Assembly: GCA_944359095.1 (NCBI GenBank)
Contig: CALVSS010000002.1
Coordinates: forward strand, 1-44,627
Reading direction: 5' to 3'
Length of the DNA stretch: 44,627 nt
Source of the DNA: an uncultured Bacilli bacterium
Lineage (GTDB): Bacteria > Bacillota_I > Bacilli_A > RF39 > UBA660
How positions within the stretch are numbered: position 1 is the stretch's first letter; every line of letters begins with the position of its first letter. The translations under genes and the position numbers were made by a program. The notes under the pieces were generated by a model, which saw only the letters and a program-made list of their open reading frames with translations, was not told the origin of the DNA and searched no databases. This document shows, piece after piece, positions 1,004-43,882 of the stretch.

Positions 1004-1534
1004 CTATTCGGATTCGATTACACCATAGTTGCCATCTGTTCTTTTATAAACAACTGCAACTTGATTTGTCTCACTATCCTTATACATATAGAACTGGTGA
1101 CCTAAGAGCTCCATTTGAAGTATTGCCTCTTCTTCGTTCATCGGTTTTACTTCAACTTTCTTTCTCTTTAAGATTTTTTTATCATCAGATGAATCCTCAT
1201 CTGAGAAAGCAGATACTACAAAGTCACGATTTGTTTTCACTTGTTTTGACATAATACGTGTTTTGTTCTTTCTTATCTGTCTTTCTAGCTTATCGATGGT
1301 TTTATCGACAGCTGCATAGAAGTCATCTTTTGACTCTTCTGATCTTAAAATAAATGCTTTTAGTGGTATGGTAATTTCTACTCGTTGTTCATGATTTTTT
1401 ACTTTTACTATGACGGTTGCGCGAACATTTTCGCTATCTTCTAGGTACTTATTTAACTTATCTAGCTTCTCTTCAATATAGCCTTTCATAGAATCAGTAA
1501 TTTTAAGTTTATCTCCATGAATAATAATTTCCAT
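1004..1534 (-). CDS. hpf: Ribosome hibernation promoting factor, long form
   Basis: 176 aa. N-terminal S30AE/RaiA-type domain plus C-terminal dimerisation domain (PMNEEEAILQMELLGHQFYMY). Sits immediately upstream of secA, as in Bacillus. Confidence 0.9.
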   Translation of the reverse strand: MEIIIHGDKLKITDSMKGYIEEKLDKLNKYLEDSENVRATVIVKVKNHEQRVEITIPLKAFILRSEESKDDFYAAVDKTIDKLERQIRKNKTRIMSKQVKTNRDFVVSAFSDEDSSDDKKILKRKKVEVKPMNEEEAILQMELLGHQFYMYKDSETNQVAVVYKRTDGNYGVIESE

Positions 1535-1573
1535 ACTATCACCTCCTTATACTTAGAGTATAGCATAATTTGG

Positions 1574-1603
1574 GAAAAAAAACTACTATTTAGCATTAGC
1601 AGT
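1574..1603 (-). terminator. Probable terminator overlapping the csp 3' end
   Basis: On the minus strand, ACTGCTA and TAGTAGT form a 7-bp stem (one G-U pair) with an 8-nt loop, followed by 8 T. Confidence 0.45.
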
Positions 1604-1807
1604 TTCTTTAACTAATTTTACATTTAAAGCTTGGTATCCCTTGCTTGTTTCAACCAATTTAAATTCTACTAGTTGTCCTTCAGATAAAGTCTTATAACCT
1701 TCTAATTCTATTGCTGAATAGTGTACGAATACATCTTCATTTTCTTTGTATTCAATAAAGCCATAGCCTTTATCATTGTTGAACCATTTTACGCGTCCAA
1801 CCATCAT
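1586..1807 (-). CDS. Cold-shock domain protein (CspA family)
   Basis: [19 protein letters not shown]...VFVHYSAI contains the RNP1/RNP2 motifs. Start set at ATG 1807, which has a GAGGTG RBS. The ORF-track start at 1837 adds 10 unlikely residues. Confidence 0.9.
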
Positions 1808-1943
1808 GTTCTTGCACCTCATTTCTACCAACAGCATCGTTTATCTCCTTGGTGATTACATCATACCAATTTTTGCCAACCCAACGACAAAAATTCCGTT
1901 AATTGCTATTGGTAGTTACTTTGATGGTTTGTATTCTTCTTTT

Positions 1944-1960
1944 TTCGACAAAATTCGACA
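1944..1960 (-). promoter_or_regulatory. Tandem pair of perfect Spo0A-box heptamers (TGTCGAA-TTT-TGTCGAA on the minus strand)
   Basis: Plus strand reads TTCGACAAAATTCGACA. The reverse complement holds two exact 0A-box heptamers spaced 10 bp start to start, in the csp/agrB divergent intergenic region. Confidence 0.5.
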
Positions 1961-2053
1961 AAATTTATTTTTAATTAATTATTTGATTGATTTTTTTGTT
2001 TTTAATCTTATTATAGTTATATAATAAGATTGATTGAGGTTTGGTGGTTGTAT

Positions 2054-2662
2054 ATGAAACAATTATTTTTGAATAAAAGCATGAATTTTATCTGCAAATA
2101 CCAATTCTTTTCTGACTACGATAAGAAAAAATTACGATATGGATTAGAAGGAATTTATCTTACTATTACCAAATTGGTTATATTACTCATTCTAGCTGTC
2201 ATATTAAATATGTTAAAAGAGTTTATTTTAGTAACTATTTTATTTAACATTATTCGATATACAGGTTTTGGATTTCATGCTGAAAAAAGTTATCAATGCT
2301 TATGCTTTTCAACTTTTAATTTTGTTGCAATACCATATTTTTTGTTACATGTACATTTACCTAACTCTGTAGTTTATATTATTTGTGCGATATGTATTTT
2401 TCACTATTTACTATTTGCACCTGCAGATACAAAAAAAAGACCTCTTTCAAATAAGAGAAAAAGGATCATTCGTAAAATTGTTACTGTTACGATTGGACTT
2501 ATTTATACATTTGCAATTATTTTATTGCAAAACGAATATTGGACTGCAATTATATTATCTGCGTTAGTTATTCAGTGCATTGTTGTTAGCCCAATTACAT
2601 ACTGGTTATTTAAACAACCTTATAATAATTACAAAGGATTAAATACTAGCAATAGTATTTAA
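2054..2662 (+). CDS. agrB: AgrB-family membrane peptidase (processes the autoinducing-peptide precursor)
   Basis: Polytopic membrane protein. IRYTGFGFHAEKSYQC has His and Cys 7 residues apart, as in S. aureus AgrB H77/C84. APADTKKRPL matches the conserved AgrB loop. ATG 2054 preferred over TTG 2030. Confidence 0.85.
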   Translation: MKQLFLNKSMNFICKYQFFSDYDKKKLRYGLEGIYLTITKLVILLILAVILNMLKEFILVTILFNIIRYTGFGFHAEKSYQCLCFSTFNFVAIPYFLLHVHLPNSVVYIICAICIFHYLLFAPADTKKRPLSNKRKRIIRKIVTVTIGLIYTFAIILLQNEYWTAIILSALVIQCIVVSPITYWLFKQPYNNYKGLNTSNSI

Positions 2663-2690: not shown

Positions 2691-2813
2691 ATGAAAAAAA
2701 GATTATCAATGTTACTTGCAGCAGTAGCTATGTTAGCAACAGGAGCAGCTAGTTTAGGATGTTGGTGGTGGACTGTTGATGAACCAGATTCATTTGGAAT
2801 ATTAAAGGACTAA
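2691..2813 (+). CDS. agrD: AgrD-like autoinducing-peptide precursor, 40 aa (MKKRLSMLLAAVAMLATGAASLGCWWWTVDEPDSFGILKD)
   Basis: Absent from the ORF track (too short). AAAGGAG RBS 7 nt upstream of the ATG, 28 nt after the agrB stop. Hydrophobic leader, single Cys, acidic Pro-containing tail. Confidence 0.7.
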   Translation: MKKRLSMLLAAVAMLATGAASLGCWWWTVDEPDSFGILKD

Positions 2814-2835: not shown

Positions 2836-4128
2836 TTAATTTTTTGACACAAAAACTTGTTGAATATAGTAATTATCAATGATTTCTTGTTTTTGTTCTA
2901 GCCACTTATTTTCTTTGATTAATTTTGAGGCAAAATATAGACCGTTTCCTCTTCCCTCGCCTTTAGATGATACTCCTTTTTTATTTCTATCCTTCATATT
3001 TTTGTGCCTTTTAAATGTATTTGAAAAAACTATACTCACTCTATCTTTTAATTCATAAATTTCAATCATTAAATTTTTCTTTCTACTTTCAGCTGCAGCC
3101 TCGATTGCATTATCAAAATATATACCAATCAATTTACATAATATTCTAACTTGCTTCTCAGATAATTTTGTTAATAATCCTTTTGATTCAATACTTACAT
3201 CTGTTGTTAAATTTATTTTTTGTTTTTGTGCGATTGCCGCTTTATAATACATCAATCCCTTTATTCCTCCTTTTGGGAGGTTTTTTAGATTTGTTACTGC
3301 TTGTCCTTCAATATTAATATTATCTTCTAATATTTCATCGATTTTTTCTTTTACTTTCTTTTCTTTCGTTAAGCATCTTAACACAGCTAACTGATTTTTA
3401 TATTCATGGCGATTTAACTGCTCTTTTTCTATCCAATCTTCAAAATTTTGCACATATATAAACATATTATCATATTCATCAGATAATTTTTTATAATCAT
3501 TTTTTCCTTGGATATAAATAAACATAATTACAATAAATACAATTATAACAATTAAGTTTATAAAATATCCTTTTACATAAGTTTCTGTTATGGTAATATT
3601 ATATGCTAAACAGCTAAAATCAACGATTAATAATACAAAAAATATCCAATTTCCAACTACAATCTTTTCAGTTAGAGAAGATAAAAATTGTTTTATGGGA
3701 TTAACATTTTTATTAATATTGATAAATATAATACTTAAAGTTCCAACAGCGACATTTGCTGTAATATTTAATATTTCTGAATTTCGTATTTCATTGATAT
3801 CAAAGAATCCTCTCATGACAAAAGATACTAGCATATCTGAAATTAGCATTATTGTCATAGCAATTGTTGTACAAATGCTACTTTTTTCTAAAGATATATT
3901 AAATATTTCTTTAAAAAAAATTATATTTATAAGATACATTGTTAATGAAAATATCATTGTATATTGAATACGATGTAACATTACTGAAATTATTATTGAA
4001 ATTAATAAACAACCAATAATTTTAACATTTATATGTATATGTGGTTCATCTAAGATTTTTTTTATGATATAAAAGATTGTAAAAATCATTATAAGTGAAC
4101 ATATAATTTTATATAACTCCTCTAACAC
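2836..4128 (-). CDS. AgrC-like (HPK10 family) membrane sensor histidine kinase
   Basis: About 6 N-terminal TM helices, H-box RHEYKNQLAVL, N-box FDNAIEAA, G-box GRGNGLY. Start uncertain: GTG 4128 has an AAGGAGA RBS 9 nt upstream; the longest ORF starts at GTG 4179. Confidence 0.85.
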   Translation of the reverse strand: MLEELYKIICSLIMIFTIFYIIKKILDEPHIHINVKIIGCLLISIIISVMLHRIQYTMIFSLTMYLINIIFFKEIFNISLEKSSICTTIAMTIMLISDMLVSFVMRGFFDINEIRNSEILNITANVAVGTLSIIFININKNVNPIKQFLSSLTEKIVVGNWIFFVLLIVDFSCLAYNITITETYVKGYFINLIVIIVFIVIMFIYIQGKNDYKKLSDEYDNMFIYVQNFEDWIEKEQLNRHEYKNQLAVLRCLTKEKKVKEKIDEILEDNINIEGQAVTNLKNLPKGGIKGLMYYKAAIAQKQKINLTTDVSIESKGLLTKLSEKQVRILCKLIGIYFDNAIEAAAESRKKNLMIEIYELKDRVSIVFSNTFKRHKNMKDRNKKGVSSKGEGRGNGLYFASKLIKENKWLEQKQEIIDNYYIQQVFVSKN

Positions 4129-4840
4129 GATTATACATCTCCTTCTTTTTACTTCTTGAAGTTTCTTTGAATTCTTCACCGTTTTTTAATAGGACTAAGT
4201 TTTTAGTAAAATTATAACTACGAACTTGTTCTACGTTAATAGCAACGGCCCTATTACATTTTACAAATCTTTTATCTAATTTGGCTAGTACTTCATTTAA
4301 AGAACCTTGAATTAAATAAGTTCCATCTTCTGCTTCTATAATACATCTTTTGCTGTCCATTTCTTTTTCAATTTTTATAATATTTTTAAATTCTATATTA
4401 TAAGCTACATTTTTATAATTATATCTTAGGCATTTATATTTATTATCATAGTGTTTCATACATATTAGTAGGGCATCTTGTAGTTTTTTCTCTGAATGAT
4501 CTAGTTTATTTATAAAATCTACTAGCATTAATCTTTTACCTAGAGCCTCATATTTATATTCTGCATAACCTGATATCATAATTATCATTGATACCCAATC
4601 GTCTAATTCTTCTCTAATCATTCTAGCGGCATCTATTCCAGAACCTTCATCTGTTCTAATATCAAGTAAATAAATTTTAAATCCTTTTATTTGTTTTACT
4701 GCTTTCTTCCATAATGAATTATAATTTTTAAATGTATAACATTTATATTCAATATCATATTTCATCATAAACTTATCAATTTGCTCTTTATATCTTTTTA
4801 ATAAATTAGATTCATCCTCACAAATTATAAAATTTATCAT
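4109..4840 (-). CDS. LytTR-family response regulator (AgrA-like)
   Basis: Receiver domain (ICEDE acidic pocket, YLLDIRT phospho-acceptor Asp) plus a C-terminal LytTR DNA-binding domain. AAGGAGG RBS. Overlaps the kinase gene start. Confidence 0.9.
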   Translation of the reverse strand: MINFIICEDESNLLKRYKEQIDKFMMKYDIEYKCYTFKNYNSLWKKAVKQIKGFKIYLLDIRTDEGSGIDAARMIREELDDWVSMIIMISGYAEYKYEALGKRLMLVDFINKLDHSEKKLQDALLICMKHYDNKYKCLRYNYKNVAYNIEFKNIIKIEKEMDSKRCIIEAEDGTYLIQGSLNEVLAKLDKRFVKCNRAVAINVEQVRSYNFTKNLVLLKNGEEFKETSRSKKKEMYNRVRGVI

Positions 4841-4875
4841 TGGTTTTCCTCCTTTATTTTTACCAAAATTTTCCA

Positions 4876-4902
4876 GTTATATAATAAAGAAAAACTGCTA
4901 GT
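4876..4902 (-). terminator. Rho-independent terminator after the tagO-like gene
   Basis: ACTGCTA (4884-4890) pairs with TAGCAGT (4896-4902), 5-nt loop, then a T-rich run (TTTTTCTT) on the minus strand. Confidence 0.6.
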
Positions 4903-4920
4903 CGTTAGCAGTCCTTGGTT

Positions 4921-7173: not shown

Positions 7174-7821
7174 TTACTCTTTCTCTTCTGTTGTTTGTAA
7201 CTCTTTATTTAGATATAAAGTTGGATTTACAACTTGACCATTTACATATAATTCAAAGTGTAAATGATTACCCATATCTTTATCTAATTCATTTGTTCCA
7301 CTTTTACCAAGTACCTGTCCCTGAGTTACTACATCACCTTTTTTTACAGATGTTTCTGATAGACTTTGATATAAACTAACATATCCATTATCATGTTTAA
7401 TTTCTATTACTTTTCCTAAAGTTTCATCATCTTTTACATCTGTAACACTACCATCTAATATAGCTACAACATCAAATGTTTTTTCAGAAACAAAATCAAC
7501 TCCTGAATTTTGCATATATGTATTATCATGATAAATAATAGATTTTGTTTGGGTATCAGCATCTGCCTTATAATCATAATAGTTTTTACCTATTGTTACA
7601 GTTTGATCTGTATAAGGATTAATGATTGTTTTTGTTTCGTTGATTACTGGCTCTTCTTCTTCTTCAAGAATCGTATTTGTTACATAGCTAGTTGGATAAT
7701 CTTCTGTATTATCTTCTTTTTGTAAATTCTTGCTTAGCAATGCTGTTCCAAAAATTACACTTGTAATTGCTATAATCAATAGTGTTGGTAATACATATGG
7801 TCTTAGTTTTCTTCTTTTCAT
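7174..7821 (-). CDS. Membrane-anchored LytM (M23) domain protein with a degenerate metal site, SpoIIQ-like architecture
   Basis: N-terminal TM helix (LRPYVLPTLLIIAITSVIFGTALL) and a C-terminal LytM domain. HLHFE is retained, but the HxxxD motif reads NSGVD. Start at ATG 7821 with a GAGGTGA RBS. Confidence 0.7.
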   Translation of the reverse strand: MKRRKLRPYVLPTLLIIAITSVIFGTALLSKNLQKEDNTEDYPTSYVTNTILEEEEEPVINETKTIINPYTDQTVTIGKNYYDYKADADTQTKSIIYHDNTYMQNSGVDFVSEKTFDVVAILDGSVTDVKDDETLGKVIEIKHDNGYVSLYQSLSETSVKKGDVVTQGQVLGKSGTNELDKDMGNHLHFELYVNGQVVNPTLYLNKELQTTEEKE

Positions 7822-7872
7822 TTTTTTCACCTCATTATAAGTTTTGACCAAAAAAAAAGATTTATACTTCTT

Positions 7873-8070
7873 TTAAAAAAATTTTGAAGAAATAAATAAA
7901 TCCATTAAAAAGTTTGTTACTAAATAAATTAGTGATAGCCCTAATAGAAAATAAAATACTCTTGCTTGTACAATATGATTTTTTTTAAATATTTGATTTA
8001 TGTTGACTGAATCCATGGCCCAAATTACTACTATTGTTACAAATACATATAATAATAGTTTGCCTAACAT
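7873..8070 (-). CDS. Small integral membrane protein, DUF1146/YwzB-like
   Basis: 65 aa with two TM helices. Family assigned from recalled similarity and from the B. subtilis neighbourhood (ywzB near murAA and mbl). Confidence 0.55.
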   Translation of the reverse strand: MLGKLLLYVFVTIVVIWAMDSVNINQIFKKNHIVQARVFYFLLGLSLIYLVTNFLMDLFISSKFF

Positions 8071-10697: not shown

Positions 10698-11941
10698 TTT
10701 ATGGTTATTTTAGCACCTACACTTGTTAATTTTTCTACAATTTGTTCATATCCTCTTAAAATGTGTTCGACATTAGTAATTGTTGTTGTTCCTTCAGCGA
10801 TTAATCCGGCAGTTACCATTGCTGCTCCAGCTCTTAAGTCTGTTGCTACTACGGATGTTCCTATTAATTTTCTTGGCCCAATAATTGTTGCTGTTTGATT
10901 CTTTACTGTGATATCTGCTCCTAGATCTTTTAAATATGGAACATGCATAAATCTATTTTCAAATATTGTTTCTGTTACTTTGGACTTTCCATTACATTGT
11001 GTTAATAATACAGAAAATGGTTGTTGTAAATCTGTAGGAAAGCCTGGATAAACTAATGTTTTAATATTTGTTGCTTTATATTCTTTTGTTTTTGATACTA
11101 AAACATAATCTGCTCCAACTTGTAATTCAACACCAATTTCTTCTAATTTTGATAATAGTGAATCTATATGTTCTGGGATGATGTTATCTACTTTTAAATT
11201 TTTTCCACATAGTGCTCCAATGATAATATAAGTTCCTGCTTCTATTCTATCCGGTATTACTTCATGAAAACATTTATGTAGGGTCTCTACTCCTTTTATT
11301 TTTATGGTTGATGTTCCTGCTCCACTTATTTTGGCTCCCATATTATTTAAGAAGGTAGCAACATTTACGATTTCTGGTTCTTTAGCAGCATTATCAATAA
11401 CAGTTGTGCCTTTGGCTTTTACTGCGGCTAACATAATATTAATGGTTGCTCCTACGGATGCTATATCTAAATAAATGTTGGCACCATGTAATTCATCAGC
11501 TTCTACTATGTATTTATTTTGCTCATTTGTTACTTTAGCTCCTAGGGCTTCAAAACCTTTTAGATGTAGGTCAATTGGTCTTGCTCCTATAGAACATCCT
11601 CCTGGAAAATACATTACGGCTTTTTTATATTTTCCTAGTAATGCACCCATAAAGTAGTAAGAGGCTCTTAATTTTTTTGAAAATTTTTCGGCAATCTCTA
11701 CATTTCTCATATTTTGGGGATTAATTATAATACTTTCACTTGCTCTTTTTACATCTACATTTAATTCTTTTAAAATGTCGCATAAAGAATCTGTATCTGT
11801 AATTTCTGGAATATTACAAATCGTTGCTTCTTCGTCAGTCAATATGGCTGCTGGTATTAAGGCAACTGTAGCATTTTTGGCTCCACTAATGCGGATTGTT
11901 CCATTCAATTCTTTATTGCCTTCTATTTCCATTATTTTCAT
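10688..11941 (-). CDS. murA: UDP-N-acetylglucosamine 1-carboxyvinyltransferase
   Basis: 417 aa with RISGAKNA, the catalytic-loop Cys in GGCSIGARPIDLH, and the full EPSP-synthase-like fold length. Confidence 0.95.
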   Translation of the reverse strand: MKIMEIEGNKELNGTIRISGAKNATVALIPAAILTDEEATICNIPEITDTDSLCDILKELNVDVKRASESIIINPQNMRNVEIAEKFSKKLRASYYFMGALLGKYKKAVMYFPGGCSIGARPIDLHLKGFEALGAKVTNEQNKYIVEADELHGANIYLDIASVGATINIMLAAVKAKGTTVIDNAAKEPEIVNVATFLNNMGAKISGAGTSTIKIKGVETLHKCFHEVIPDRIEAGTYIIIGALCGKNLKVDNIIPEHIDSLLSKLEEIGVELQVGADYVLVSKTKEYKATNIKTLVYPGFPTDLQQPFSVLLTQCNGKSKVTETIFENRFMHVPYLKDLGADITVKNQTATIIGPRKLIGTSVVATDLRAGAAMVTAGLIAEGTTTITNVEHILRGYEQIVEKLTSVGAKITIKEI

Positions 11942-13480: not shown

Positions 13481-13999
13481 TTAAAAATACTTATCAATTA
13501 CTTCTTTTACAAAGGAAGTATATTCGACATTTTCTTGCTCTTCTTCTGTATCAAGAAGACATAGTGGAGGAAATAATACGCACCAAAAGTTTTCTCCTAA
13601 GCCATTTCCTAACGTAATTACTAGGGATTCATATTCTCCTTCTTCGTAAACTATGCCTTTATATTCTTTTTCTGGAAAATAATTCATTCCATAATCTATT
13701 GTAAATGTTTCTTTACTTTGATTTTTTTCTAATGTTTCTTTTACAATTTTAGAAAATTCTGGGATAGTATTTTTTATATTTTTTCTAGAATTTTCTAGTG
13801 ATGTATCTAAAAAAGTTAATTTTCTAATTTCTTGATTTAAATTAGTTACTACTTTCTTTTTTAAGGTTTGGTCTTCTTCTTTATCACTGTTAGCAATTAC
13901 TCTAAATCTTATCGCCTCTTTGGGAATGATTACTTTTTCTTCTTTATTAATCGCTAATATAGTAATTATTACTGCTAAAAAGATAATTAGTTTTTTCAT
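13481..13999 (-). CDS. spoIIR: Stage II sporulation protein R-like signalling protein
   Basis: Signal/anchor helix, then AIRFRVIANSDKEEDQTLK and the C-terminal FWCVLFPPLC motif typical of SpoIIR. Syntenic with B. subtilis (near prmC and mntP). Confidence 0.75.
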   Translation of the reverse strand: MKKLIIFLAVIITILAINKEEKVIIPKEAIRFRVIANSDKEEDQTLKKKVVTNLNQEIRKLTFLDTSLENSRKNIKNTIPEFSKIVKETLEKNQSKETFTIDYGMNYFPEKEYKGIVYEEGEYESLVITLGNGLGENFWCVLFPPLCLLDTEEEQENVEYTSFVKEVIDKYF

Positions 14000-14056
14000 A
14001 TTTCTCTTCCTTTCATATTCATAGTGAGAGAAATATTTTTATTTTATACAATATTT

Positions 14057-14884
14057 TTAATTTTTTATTCCATTAAAGATAAATACCATTCTATCTTTTT
14101 CAGATAGATCTTTTTTTACTAGCATCGTTGCATTTGGTAGATAATAATTCACAAGCTTTTTTATATCTTCTGCTTGGGTCATTCCTATTTCAAAGGCAAT
14201 TAGACATTTTTCTTTCATATGTGGGGTAACCGTTTCTAATATTTTTTTATAACAATCCAGTCCATCTTTTCCTGCATATAGAGCAATACTTGGTTCATTT
14301 TCTTTTACTATAGATTCTATTTCTTCTTCCGTTTTAATATAGGGTGGATTACTGATAATAATATCATATTTTTTATTCACAGATGTAAACATATCACTTT
14401 CTATTAAATTTGCTTTAGAATTTAGTTTTACACAATTAATTTTTGCTACTTCTAAGGCTTCTTTACTAATATCTATTAAATCCACAGATTTTGTGGAAAC
14501 TTTTTTTTCAAGAGTTAGACCAATTACTCCACTTCCACAACCTAAATCTATAATATCCACAGGTTCTGTGAAAAACTCTTTGATATATTTTACGGTATTT
14601 TCCACAAGCTCTTCTGTTTCAAATCTAGGAATTAAGACTCTTTTATCAATATAAAATTCATTTCCATAAAAATTAACATGTCCTAATACATATTGAAGTG
14701 GTTTATTTTCTTCTAATGCCTTGATTTCTTCTTTTAATAAGTTTACTTTTTCTTCTGGTACTTCTTCTTGCAAATGATTTAATAGTTCTAATGGATTACA
14801 ATTTAAAAGTTCTGCAACTAATATTTTGGCATGATCAGAGTGAATGTGTCCTTTAGCAAAAAACAGAAGATTTTCTACTGTCAT
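14057..14884 (-). CDS. prmC: Release-factor glutamine N5-methyltransferase
   Basis: DLGCGSG SAM motif and NPPY catalytic motif. ATG overlaps the prfA stop (TAATG). Confidence 0.9.
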   Translation of the reverse strand: MTVENLLFFAKGHIHSDHAKILVAELLNCNPLELLNHLQEEVPEEKVNLLKEEIKALEENKPLQYVLGHVNFYGNEFYIDKRVLIPRFETEELVENTVKYIKEFFTEPVDIIDLGCGSGVIGLTLEKKVSTKSVDLIDISKEALEVAKINCVKLNSKANLIESDMFTSVNKKYDIIISNPPYIKTEEEIESIVKENEPSIALYAGKDGLDCYKKILETVTPHMKEKCLIAFEIGMTQAEDIKKLVNYYLPNATMLVKKDLSEKDRMVFIFNGIKN

Positions 14885-42526: not shown

Positions 42527-43882
42527 CTATTTTCCAACGCAAAAGTTTGCAAATAAATGATCTAGTATTTCTTCACTATAGGTTTCACCTATAATTTCAC
42601 CTAAATAATCAAAAGTGTCTTTTAAATCTATTTCTATCATATCTATTGGTAGACTGTTGTGTAATCCTTCTTCTGCTTCTTTTAAACTTTGGTAAGCTTT
42701 TTTGGCTAATGAAATTTGGCGTGCATTAGTTAGATATGTATAGTCTTTTGATTTTATAGATTCTAATTGAAATAAATCAATTATTTTGTTCTTTAATTCT
42801 TTTATTCCTTCGACAGTATTTGTATTTGTTTCTACTACACTATCTAGGGAAGATTTAGATATATTTATTTTTTTCTCTAAGTCATTTTTATTTATTACAA
42901 TAATTCTCTCTTTATTCTTTGTCTTTTCTAGAATTTCTTTATCTTCTGAAGTTAACTCTTCATTATTATTTAATACTACAATTACTAAATCTGCTTCATC
43001 AATCATAGATAAACTTTTTTCTACTCCGATTTTTTCAACAATATCTTCTGTTTTTCTAATACCTGCAGTATCAATAATATTTAAAAGAATTCCTTCTAAG
43101 TAAACTTGTCCTTCTACAATATCTCTTGTTGTTCCTGCTATATCAGTAACAATAGCTTTATCTTGTTCTATTAATTTATTTAAAATACTACTTTTCCCTA
43201 CATTAGGTCTTCCAATAATTACTGTTTTTATTCCTTCTTTGATTAGTGTAGAGTTTTTGGATGATTTTATAATATCTTCTAATTCTTTTTTCATAGAAAT
43301 TAATTCTGTTTGAATTTTTTCTTTTGTTACTACTTCTATATCATGATATTCTGGATAATCAATATTTACTTCGATACTTGCTAATAATTGTTTTAAACTA
43401 TCTCTAAACTTTTTAATCATATTTGATGTTGAACCACTAAGTTGAGAAACAGCTAACTTATTTGCTTCTTCACTTTTACTATCTATGATATCCATTACTG
43501 CTTCACTTTTTACTAAGTCAATTCTACCATTTAAAAAGGCTCTTTTGGTAAATTCTCCTGGTTCCGCTAATCTTGCTCCATGCATTAATACTGTTTCTAG
43601 TATTCTTTTTGTAGAAATAATTCCTCCATGACAGTTAATTTCTACAACATCTTCTGTTGTGTATGTTTTAGGAGCTTTCATAATAGAAACAAGTACTTCA
43701 TCAATTACTTCTCCTTGATCTATGATATGTCCATAATTAATTGTATGACTTTCCACTTTGCTTAAATCTTTACCTTTAAAACAGCTATTAGCGATTGATA
43801 TTGCTTCTGGTCCACTTAATCTAATAATGGATATAGCCCCTACTCCTAAGGCTGTTGAAATTGCTGCTATAGTATCATTCAT
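42527..43882 (-). CDS. mnmE: tRNA modification GTPase MnmE (TrmE/ThdF)
   Basis: N-terminal DTIAAISTA, G-domain GRPNVGKSS and DTAG, and the C-terminal CVGK tetrapeptide. Confidence 0.95.
   Translation of the reverse strand: MNDTIAAISTALGVGAISIIRLSGPEAISIANSCFKGKDLSKVESHTINYGHIIDQGEVIDEVLVSIMKAPKTYTTEDVVEINCHGGIISTKRILETVLMHGARLAEPGEFTKRAFLNGRIDLVKSEAVMDIIDSKSEEANKLAVSQLSGSTSNMIKKFRDSLKQLLASIEVNIDYPEYHDIEVVTKEKIQTELISMKKELEDIIKSSKNSTLIKEGIKTVIIGRPNVGKSSILNKLIEQDKAIVTDIAGTTRDIVEGQVYLEGILLNIIDTAGIRKTEDIVEKIGVEKSLSMIDEADLVIVVLNNNEELTSEDKEILEKTKNKERIIVINKNDLEKKINISKSSLDSVVETNTNTVEGIKELKNKIIDLFQLESIKSKDYTYLTNARQISLAKKAYQSLKEAEEGLHNSLPIDMIEIDLKDTFDYLGEIIGETYSEEILDHLFANFCVGK

Follow-up and report, generated by a model that had tools for sequence, protein, structure and literature searches.

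The Spo0A boxes (0A boxes) of the Bacillus subtilis abrB promoter and of site 0A-1 at the A2c promoter of phage phi29/Nf share one layout, a direct repeat of TGTCGAA-type cores with a 3-bp spacer, and both overlap or follow the core promoter that they repress. Phosphorylated Spo0A (Spo0A~P) binds such boxes, perfect or imperfect, as a dimer, and two boxes with 3 bp between them give a 25–30-bp footprint (PMC2731898). Spo0A contacts the TGTCGAA core at G2, C4 and G5, and binding can be predicted from a consensus box even between genera; the DNA-binding domain of Clostridioides difficile Spo0A (Spo0A-DBD) binds the B. subtilis abrB promoter, the standard high-affinity Spo0A target (PMC3485338). 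Here we describe a 17-bp element of this type at positions 1944–1960 of a 44,627-nt stretch of DNA (contig CALVSS010000002.1; hereafter the window) from an uncultured gut bacterium, where it lies between the divergent genes csp and agrB. From its sequence and conservation, we consider it likely that the element is a high-affinity operator for a Spo0A~P dimer, common to the promoters of agrBD and csp (probably with hpf).

Boxes of this kind also serve in the autoregulation of spo0A, which is known in B. subtilis and has been proposed for C. difficile (PMC3485338). As appears to be the case at our locus, Agr peptide signaling is coupled to the Spo0A pathway in Clostridium acetobutylicum (agrBDCA) and C. 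difficile (RgaR–agrB1D1). In those clostridia sporulation lies downstream of Agr, with AgrA or RgaR driving agrBD, whereas the arrow that we infer here would run from Spo0A to agrBD. We found no description of 0A boxes at agrB in the reviews and primary papers that we consulted on clostridial Agr systems.

A perfect tandem of 0A boxes in the csp/agrB spacer

The plus strand of the window reads TTCGACAAAATTCGACA at 1944–1960, and the minus strand reads TGTCGAA-TTT-TGTCGAA, confirming the two exact boxes with a 3-bp spacer that the initial annotation had reported in this intergenic region. The element consists of three parts:

1944–1950, minus strand: 0A box, csp-proximal copy; exact TGTCGAA, the better conserved of the two
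1951–1953, no strand: A/T spacer of 3 bp, with the box centers at a period of 10 bp
1954–1960, minus strand: 0A box, agrB-proximal copy; exact TGTCGAA (TTCGACA on the plus strand)

Both heptamers have G2, C4 and G5 of the core intact, and a direct repeat with a 3-bp spacer fits the Spo0A~P dimer. The tandem is closer to consensus than its best-known counterparts: both boxes are perfect here, while the Nf site has TGTtGAA twice and abrB has one perfect core together with nonconsensus boxes (PMC3485338). Extending the view to 1944–1963 (TTCGACAAAATTCGACAAAA), a perfect 10-bp unit, TTCGACAAAA, is present twice in direct succession. The tandem sits outside coding sequence, in the 246-nt spacer (1808–2053) of csp and agrB, 94–110 nt upstream of the agrB ATG and 137–153 nt upstream of the csp ATG, in line with the distances first estimated.

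A second exact copy at this spacing had been called very unlikely by chance, and a first-order Markov model bears this out, with 3.8e-5 tandems expected per 44.6-kb window (either strand, any 3-bp spacer). Exact TGTCGAA occurs six times in the window, where shuffled sequence would give 1.96. Outside the tandem there are four copies, at 10766, 13523, 30319 and 42809, all within coding sequence; the initial annotation had placed those at 13523 and 30319 correctly, gave 42819 for the one at 42809, and missed the one at 10766. At the level of sequence, the element has every feature of a Spo0A operator.

Two other identities were tried and rejected. A CodY box (AATTTTCWGAAAATT) has four mismatches in its best register, and the pattern of conservation is not palindromic but that of direct repeats around CGACA. 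A search of the spacer for RNA elements with Rfam at permissive thresholds gave only a sub-threshold cspA match, within the csp coding region.

Conservation of the tandem among relatives

We assessed conservation in 45 species-level loci (L001–L045) in which hpf-csp, agrBD and a kinase-regulator pair form one module. The divergent neighbor of agrB is csp in all 45; hpf lies downstream of csp in every locus with enough flanking sequence, and the full order hpf-csp, agrB-agrD, kinase-regulator is seen wherever the flank suffices. The tandem is perfect (14/14 box positions) in 23 of the 45 loci and near-perfect, at the homologous position, in nine more (13/14 in four and 12/14 in five). Across an alignment of 30 distinct spacers, the mean major-allele frequency was 0.93 at the 14 box positions versus 0.64 elsewhere in the spacer. 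The agrB-proximal box is the more variable, reading TTCGATA, TTCGATT or TTCGACT in L015–L017, L026, L029 and L045, and the 3-bp spacer of the relatives reads AAA, AAT or TAT. In a distant clade (L033, L034 and L041) the tandem has been kept despite an AgrB identity of 36%–39% and spacers that can no longer be aligned. Exact boxes numbered 68 in 488 kb of lineage DNA, 62 of them within 11 kb of csp/agrB spacers. Judged by these comparisons, the tandem is under strong purifying selection relative to its flanks.

The same comparisons bear on the possibility that the repeat is a neutral 10-bp tandem duplication, or a product of chance, with no function. The unit is indeed exactly duplicated, and AT-rich spacers gather slippage repeats. 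Against this, the tandem is perfect or near-perfect at the counts given above while neighboring bases diverge, the spacer trinucleotide varies where the heptamers do not, and only ∼4e-5 tandems are expected per window. On this comparative evidence we take a neutral or chance origin as already refuted and give it practically no weight. A strain-specific duplication, which the initial annotation had named as a refuting outcome, is ruled out because the tandem is conserved across species-level relatives.

Outside the csp/agrB spacer of L001–L045, TGTCGAA or TTCGACA was observed twice in ∼443 kb, against ∼21 expected under a first-order Markov model. This depletion probably reflects rare codons (TCG, CGA, GTC, GAC) and the fact that the loci are orthologous; selection against spurious Spo0A sites is also conceivable. 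Further conserved blocks of the spacer are TTCCGTTAATTG at 1893–1905 and TTTTGGT at ∼1925–1931, both of which survive in the clade that lacks the boxes. The alignment revealed another block nearer to agrB:

1979–1993, plus strand: conserved sequence ACwwTTTAyrGAwwT, roughly from −37 to −52 with respect to the agrB promoter

Lacking a CG core, this block does not qualify as a 0A box, but it might be bound by the LytTR regulator encoded at the locus.

Spo0A proteins and spo0A promoters in similar genomes

We scanned a metagenome collection for the Spo0A helix ERAIRHAIE, back-translated in AT-rich codons, and recovered 120 loci. The products of about 52 of these are short Spo0A proteins (∼255 aa) that form a family of their own; the contigs have 23%–31% guanine plus cytosine (GC), and many come from gut samples. 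The two members tested passed the NCBIfam Spo0A equivalog (262 and 265 bits versus a cut-off of 200), and the recognition helix SRVERAIRHAIE is invariant in the alignment of the family. A profile search put the Spo0A family at 8000 clusters or more; among the 120 matches listed, all have Response_reg and Spo0A_C domains, and the named entries are "Spo0A [Bacilli bacterium]" or "[Tenericutes bacterium]", from metagenome-assembled genomes (MAGs). One Spo0A member was found in BRZ_* and ONAT22-1 assemblies, the cohorts that also yielded agr loci and the exact AgrB of the window. Judged from its lineage, the genome under study very probably has spo0A.

Upstream sequence was sufficient in 35 AT-rich-family spo0A genes, which come from related genomes and not from this one. 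An exact TTCGACA lies 50–120 nt upstream of the gene's own ATG in 26 of the 35, always on the sense strand. Four loci (L054, L068, L117 and L142) have the identical TTCGACA-N3-TTCGACA arrangement; in the majority of the remaining ones TTCGACA-AAA is present but the half-site after it is degenerate. Additional examples of boxes at spo0A were also seen. The boxes at agrB match those upstream of spo0A in orientation and in distance to the ATG (∼100–110 nt at agrB). These spo0A boxes are, by their position, the expected signature of autoregulation, and in genomes of this type the tandem motif is thereby seen to mark a canonical Spo0A target. With the known spo0A promoters (Pv/Ps of B. subtilis and the one proposed in C. 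difficile) as the described counterparts, the agrB site resembles the AT-rich-family spo0A boxes in box and orientation; it differs in its target genes and in that their second half-site is usually degenerate (yTTkwCA) and their boxes are nearer to the −10, at ∼34–45 nt as measured by eye.

Many winged-helix response regulators bind direct repeats with a 10–11-bp period, and the element could in principle be the site of such a regulator, for instance of the OmpR/PhoB family, that resembles a 0A box by coincidence. The coincidence, however, would have to produce a 14/14 match to the Spo0A consensus that is kept across 23 species, and to place the same motif at the spo0A promoters of comparable genomes; moreover, no candidate regulator is linked to the locus. 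We judge this explanation very improbable.

Two side observations concern the spo0A loci of the AT-rich family (L049–L193). The gene tpiA (PF00121) usually precedes spo0A, and in many cases a short CTAG...CTAG inverted repeat comes after the 0A box, as in actagagcatttttgctctat.

Position of the boxes relative to the predicted promoters

Conserved promoter motifs flank the tandem on both sides, and start sites were predicted ∼7 nt past each conserved −10 motif:

1860–1868, minus strand: putative csp promoter with the extended −10 TGGTATGAT, which reads TGnTAnnAT throughout the close relatives; its start is predicted near 1853
1996–2001, plus strand: weak −35-like TTGTTT, tentatively assigned, 18 nt upstream of the agrB −10; 4/6 match to TTGACA
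2020–2025, plus strand: predicted agrB promoter −10 TATAAT, conserved in the alignment; predicted start near 2032

Relative to these predicted starts the boxes lie upstream of both promoters, spanning about −72 to −88 on the agrB side and about −91 to −107 on the csp side. Their spacing to both −10 elements is fixed, with 73–75 nt to the csp extended −10 in 26 loci and 57–60 nt from box 2 to the agrB −10 hexamer in 27 loci. In this the site departs from abrB and A2c, since it lies ∼70–110 nt upstream of both predicted starts and does not overlap or follow a core promoter.

The initial annotation had suggested that Spo0A might repress csp from within its leader, as at abrB. The conserved extended −10 at 1860–1868 falls between the boxes and csp, and because the boxes lie upstream of both predicted start sites, abrB-style repression within the csp leader is unsupported; an abrB-type operator would have boxes downstream of, or overlapping, the start of the repressed gene, and by the predicted starts they are not found there. 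Its broader proposal of a functional Spo0A operator has fared better, being strongly supported by conservation, by the boxes at spo0A and by the likeness to a footprinted type of site (PMC2731898).

Because its −35 is weak, the agrB promoter looks activator-dependent. Sigma-A promoters of the spoIIG type, which Spo0A activates, have a strong upstream site, a poor or mis-spaced −35, and weaker boxes overlapping the −35. The agrB promoter is like spoIIG in its strong upstream site and poor −35, and unlike it in that the window's clade lacks any CG-containing box between −35 and −55. The distant clade is arranged differently. In L033, L034 and L041 the tandem is at about −45 to −61 from the csp extended −10 (TGATATACT), and in L033 and L034 a third perfect TGTCGAA lies over the −35 of the agrB promoter (TTGTCGAA-N15-TATAAT), where L041 has TGTCGAT. 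With the tandem near the csp promoter and a third box at the agrB −35, both transcription units are box-associated in the distant clade too.

These distances also speak to a narrower reading, in which the tandem is a Spo0A operator for csp-hpf only, controlling ribosome hibernation and RNA chaperoning for dormancy, and agrB is an incidental neighbor. The synteny of csp and hpf is universal, the distant-clade tandem or its decayed remnant lies 71–84 nt from the csp ATG and ∼200 nt from agrB, and the position of the tandem in L033, L034 and L041 is a classic activator position for csp. In the window's clade, however, the boxes are nearer to the agrB −10 than to the csp element (57–60 versus 73–75 nt), and it is the agrB −35 that is weak and looks activator-dependent, whereas an extended −10 such as that of csp usually needs no activator. 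In addition, the agrB promoter of L033, L034 and L041 has a 0A box of its own at the −35 and so is independently box-associated, and the orientation and ATG distance at agrB are those of the spo0A boxes. A site serving csp-hpf only is therefore, in our estimate, unlikely.

Two observations on the agrB core promoter stand apart from the question of Spo0A. Long perfect palindromes of lineage-specific sequence overlap it in the window (2004–2031) and in L016, L017, L019, L045 and L025. In the window and in L002 the arms surround the −10 and measure 12 nt; they measure 13–18 nt in L016, L017, L019 and L045, and 19 nt in L025; the other loci have none. They may be operators for a lineage-specific repressor. 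A sigma-H promoter was considered for an A(A/G)GGAwwT-like block upstream of agrB and rejected, as there is no GAAT −10 at the right distance and TATAAT is 24 nt away.

The neighboring Agr system

The genes on either side of the spacer, which bear out the csp and agrB of the initial annotation, are as follows:

1004–1534, minus strand: hpf, ribosome hibernation-promoting factor (Pfam PF02482 and PF16321), directly downstream of csp
1586–1807, minus strand: csp, cold-shock domain protein (Pfam PF00313, E = 8e-26)
2054–2662, plus strand: agrB, AgrD-processing membrane peptidase of 202 aa (Pfam PF04647, E = 4.5e-31)
2691–2813, plus strand: agrD-like autoinducing-peptide precursor (MKKRLSMLLAAVAMLATGAASLGCWWWTVDEPDSFGILKD), an open reading frame supported by leader and tail conservation across loci
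2836–4128, minus strand: AgrC-like GHKL sensor histidine kinase of 430 aa, convergent with agrBD (Pfam HATPase_c_5)
4109–4840, minus strand: AgrA-like LytTR response regulator (Pfam LytTR, E = 2.1e-12, and a receiver domain)

The locus thus has the parts of an agr-type quorum-sensing system, namely AgrB, an AgrD precursor with a Cys-x4 ring and an acidic tail, a membrane GHKL kinase, and a LytTR regulator. The AgrD leader and its (D/E)EP tail are conserved from locus to locus, and the four residues that follow the Cys are hypervariable. A second locus of the same species (L002; CALVKA010000002.1) has a csp/agrB spacer near-identical to that of the window (one base deleted, outside the boxes) and an HPF that is 100% identical, with AgrB, kinase and regulator at 83%, 65% and 83% identity and an AgrD ring of CAWWF versus CWWWT. 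This looks like allelic divergence of agr specificity groups within one species, as in staphylococci.

The presence of an AgrA-like regulator raises what we regard as the most serious rival explanation, in which the repeats are, like those of staphylococcal agr P2/P3, the autoinduction site of this LytTR protein; where they occur at spo0A, it would be quorum sensing that drives spo0A transcription. An AgrA-type circuit leads one to expect direct repeats upstream of agrB, and the LytTR regulator and GHKL kinase adjoin in every locus with enough flank. As in staphylococci, a divergent control region with direct repeats lies by agrB, and AgrB, AgrD, kinase and LytTR regulator are all present. Described LytTR sites are ∼9-bp direct repeats ∼12 bp apart with a 21-bp period, whereas the tandem has 7-bp units, a 3-bp spacer and a 10-bp period, so that repeat unit, period and sequence are of the Spo0A type. 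The organization differs from staphylococcal agr as well: the divergent partner is csp-hpf and not RNAIII, and kinase and regulator form a separate convergent unit with its own promoter. A link from Agr to spo0A would be sensible, as Agr promotes sporulation in several clostridia (PMC8102284, PMC11210211). Yet the motif agrees with the canonical 0A box at every position (7/7), TTCGACA is missing from the promoter of the regulator itself, which has a different conserved element (TGGAAAAwTwTGGTAAAAT), and at least eight loci keep kinase, regulator and agrBD but have no boxes. Furthermore, a genome with the canonical Spo0A helix would bind this sequence whatever else binds it (PMC3485338). On balance we find autoinduction by the LytTR regulator distinctly improbable.

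The region upstream of the LytTR gene (∼4841–4920) and its counterparts in 21 homologous loci contain a terminator-like hairpin followed by the conserved TGGAAAAwTwTGGTAAAAT, which comprises two TGGnAAAAT units with a 10-bp period, the second of which looks like an extended −10. On the other side of the spacer, the 51-nt hpf-csp gap (1535–1585, minus strand) contains TGCTATACT, which is extended −10-like, and no predicted terminator; hpf may therefore have its own promoter besides read-through from csp.

Sporulation genes and host lineage

Two genes of the window give the boxes a sporulation context. Both had been named in the initial annotation and were recovered by profile searches:

7174–7851, minus strand: SpoIIQ-like M23 protein (NF053738, E = 6.6e-51; 173 bits, under the equivalog cut-off of 250)
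13481–13999, minus strand: spoIIR (TIGR02837, E = 1.5e-42; 145 bits versus a cut-off of 151.9)

As context evidence, spoIIR indicates that the genome keeps forespore-to-mother-cell signaling, which is downstream of Spo0A. Elements with GTATA precede both genes, GTATA-N18-CACTATGAATAT upstream of spoIIR (14003–14060, minus strand) and GTATA-N13-GGTCAAAAC upstream of the SpoIIQ-like gene (7852–7880, minus strand). These elements before two forespore-type genes resemble sigma-F/sigma-G promoters.

The window has 28% GC and is an origin-proximal part of the chromosome, with the gene run jag, mnmE, mnmG, rsmG, noc, soj, spo0J ... dnaB, prfA, prmC, spoIIR, murA, SpoIIQ-like gene ... mreB. Since it encodes MurA, a class A PBP (penicillin-binding protein) and MreB, the host has a cell wall. 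The 45 AgrB relatives, from a one-genome-per-species collection, are all from uncultured gut MAGs labeled Bacilli, Tenericutes, "Mycoplasma sp. CAG:877", Ca. (Candidatus) Faecimonas intestinavium or Erysipelotrichaceae. The nearest named relatives are Ca. Faecimonas, and the host is accordingly no Clostridium but an uncultured gut organism of RF39/CAG-611 type. In GTDB, Ca. Faecimonas is genus CAG-877 (order RF39, family CAG-611); its genome measures 1.4 Mb and has 28% GC (PMC8035907).

A putative shared Spo0A operator

In the mechanism that we favor, a head-to-tail dimer of phosphorylated Spo0A would bind the 17-bp element between two divergent promoters, that of agrBD (production of the quorum-sensing peptide) and that of csp, probably with hpf. 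Because both boxes are perfect and the period is 10 bp, Spo0A~P would be expected to occupy the site already at low concentration, and binding would alter transcription of one or both units. We prefer a version in which Spo0A~P activates agrBD from about −72 to −88, tying entry into the Spo0A state to autoinducer output; this part of the proposal is tentative, with a chance that we put slightly below even. That Spo0A~P also modulates csp-hpf is possible but somewhat less assured. As to the sign of the regulation, activation of agrBD is our preferred guess for the window's clade; in L033 and L034 the extra box over the agrB −35 looks more like occlusion.

Several findings weigh against a shared Spo0A operator. 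In one sub-clade (L030, L037, L039, L040, L042 and L043) the boxes are wholly lost, and the four of these loci with available flank (L030, L037, L039 and L042) retain csp, agrBD, the kinase-regulator pair and the SpoIIQ-like gene. At this locus, loss of the boxes shows no visible correlation with loss of sporulation genes, the SpoIIQ-like gene being kept. Since the box-less sub-clade keeps the module and the SpoIIQ-like gene, the link through the boxes is not obligatory and is evolutionarily dispensable; the sub-clade is also a natural comparison group for box function. No spo0A gene lies in the 44.6-kb window, which covers only part of the genome, and a Spo0A gene and the agr locus were not placed together in one assembly: the Spo0A contigs share no genes with the window or the agr loci, and look-ups of three Spo0A proteins led to the same cohorts as the agr loci but not to the same assemblies. 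A machine-learning study scores RF39 MAGs as nonsporulating (0%) (PMC12536801). With respect to geometry, the boxes are distant from both core promoters and not at the classic −40 position, although this is compatible with upstream activation. A weak promoter-proximal 0A box of the spoIIG type at agrB was sought in the window's clade and is unsupported, as the conserved block there has no CG core.

Implications for RF39-type bacteria

Elements of the type described here are familiar. The novelty lies in the target, an agr operon and csp-hpf that apparently share one operator, in the lineage, uncultured gut Bacilli of the RF39 type, and in how deeply the element is conserved. Formerly placed in the "Tenericutes/Mollicutes," RF39-type bacteria have never been cultured and their sporulation status is disputed. 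Against the score of 0% cited above, another study predicts that RF39 sporulate with a reduced gene set, taking spo0A as an absolute requirement (PMC10868615). Perfect retention of the putative operator in dozens of species, along with the autoregulatory boxes found at spo0A, is evidence at the sequence level for a Spo0A circuit that is under selection in these organisms and therefore in use. The comparison suggests that small-genome organisms of the RF39 type keep a working Spo0A circuit tied to cell-to-cell signaling, which bears on how abundant uncultured gut taxa persist and pass between hosts. The full claim, that the Spo0A of these organisms is active and directly drives both the Agr autoinducing peptide and the csp-hpf dormancy module from one shared operator, is more doubtful than its parts, and we think it less likely than not.

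The data nominate agrBD and csp-hpf as first members of an RF39 Spo0A regulon. The DNA fragment concerned is short, so binding and reporter studies are possible without culturing the organism. Our results suggest a direct link from Spo0A to quorum sensing of a kind undescribed for the clostridial Agr systems surveyed. If Spo0A does drive Agr, the clostridial hierarchy, in which Agr acts on Spo0A, would be reversed, and Spo0A and Agr would form a positive feedback loop that could synchronize entry into sporulation or dormancy across the population.

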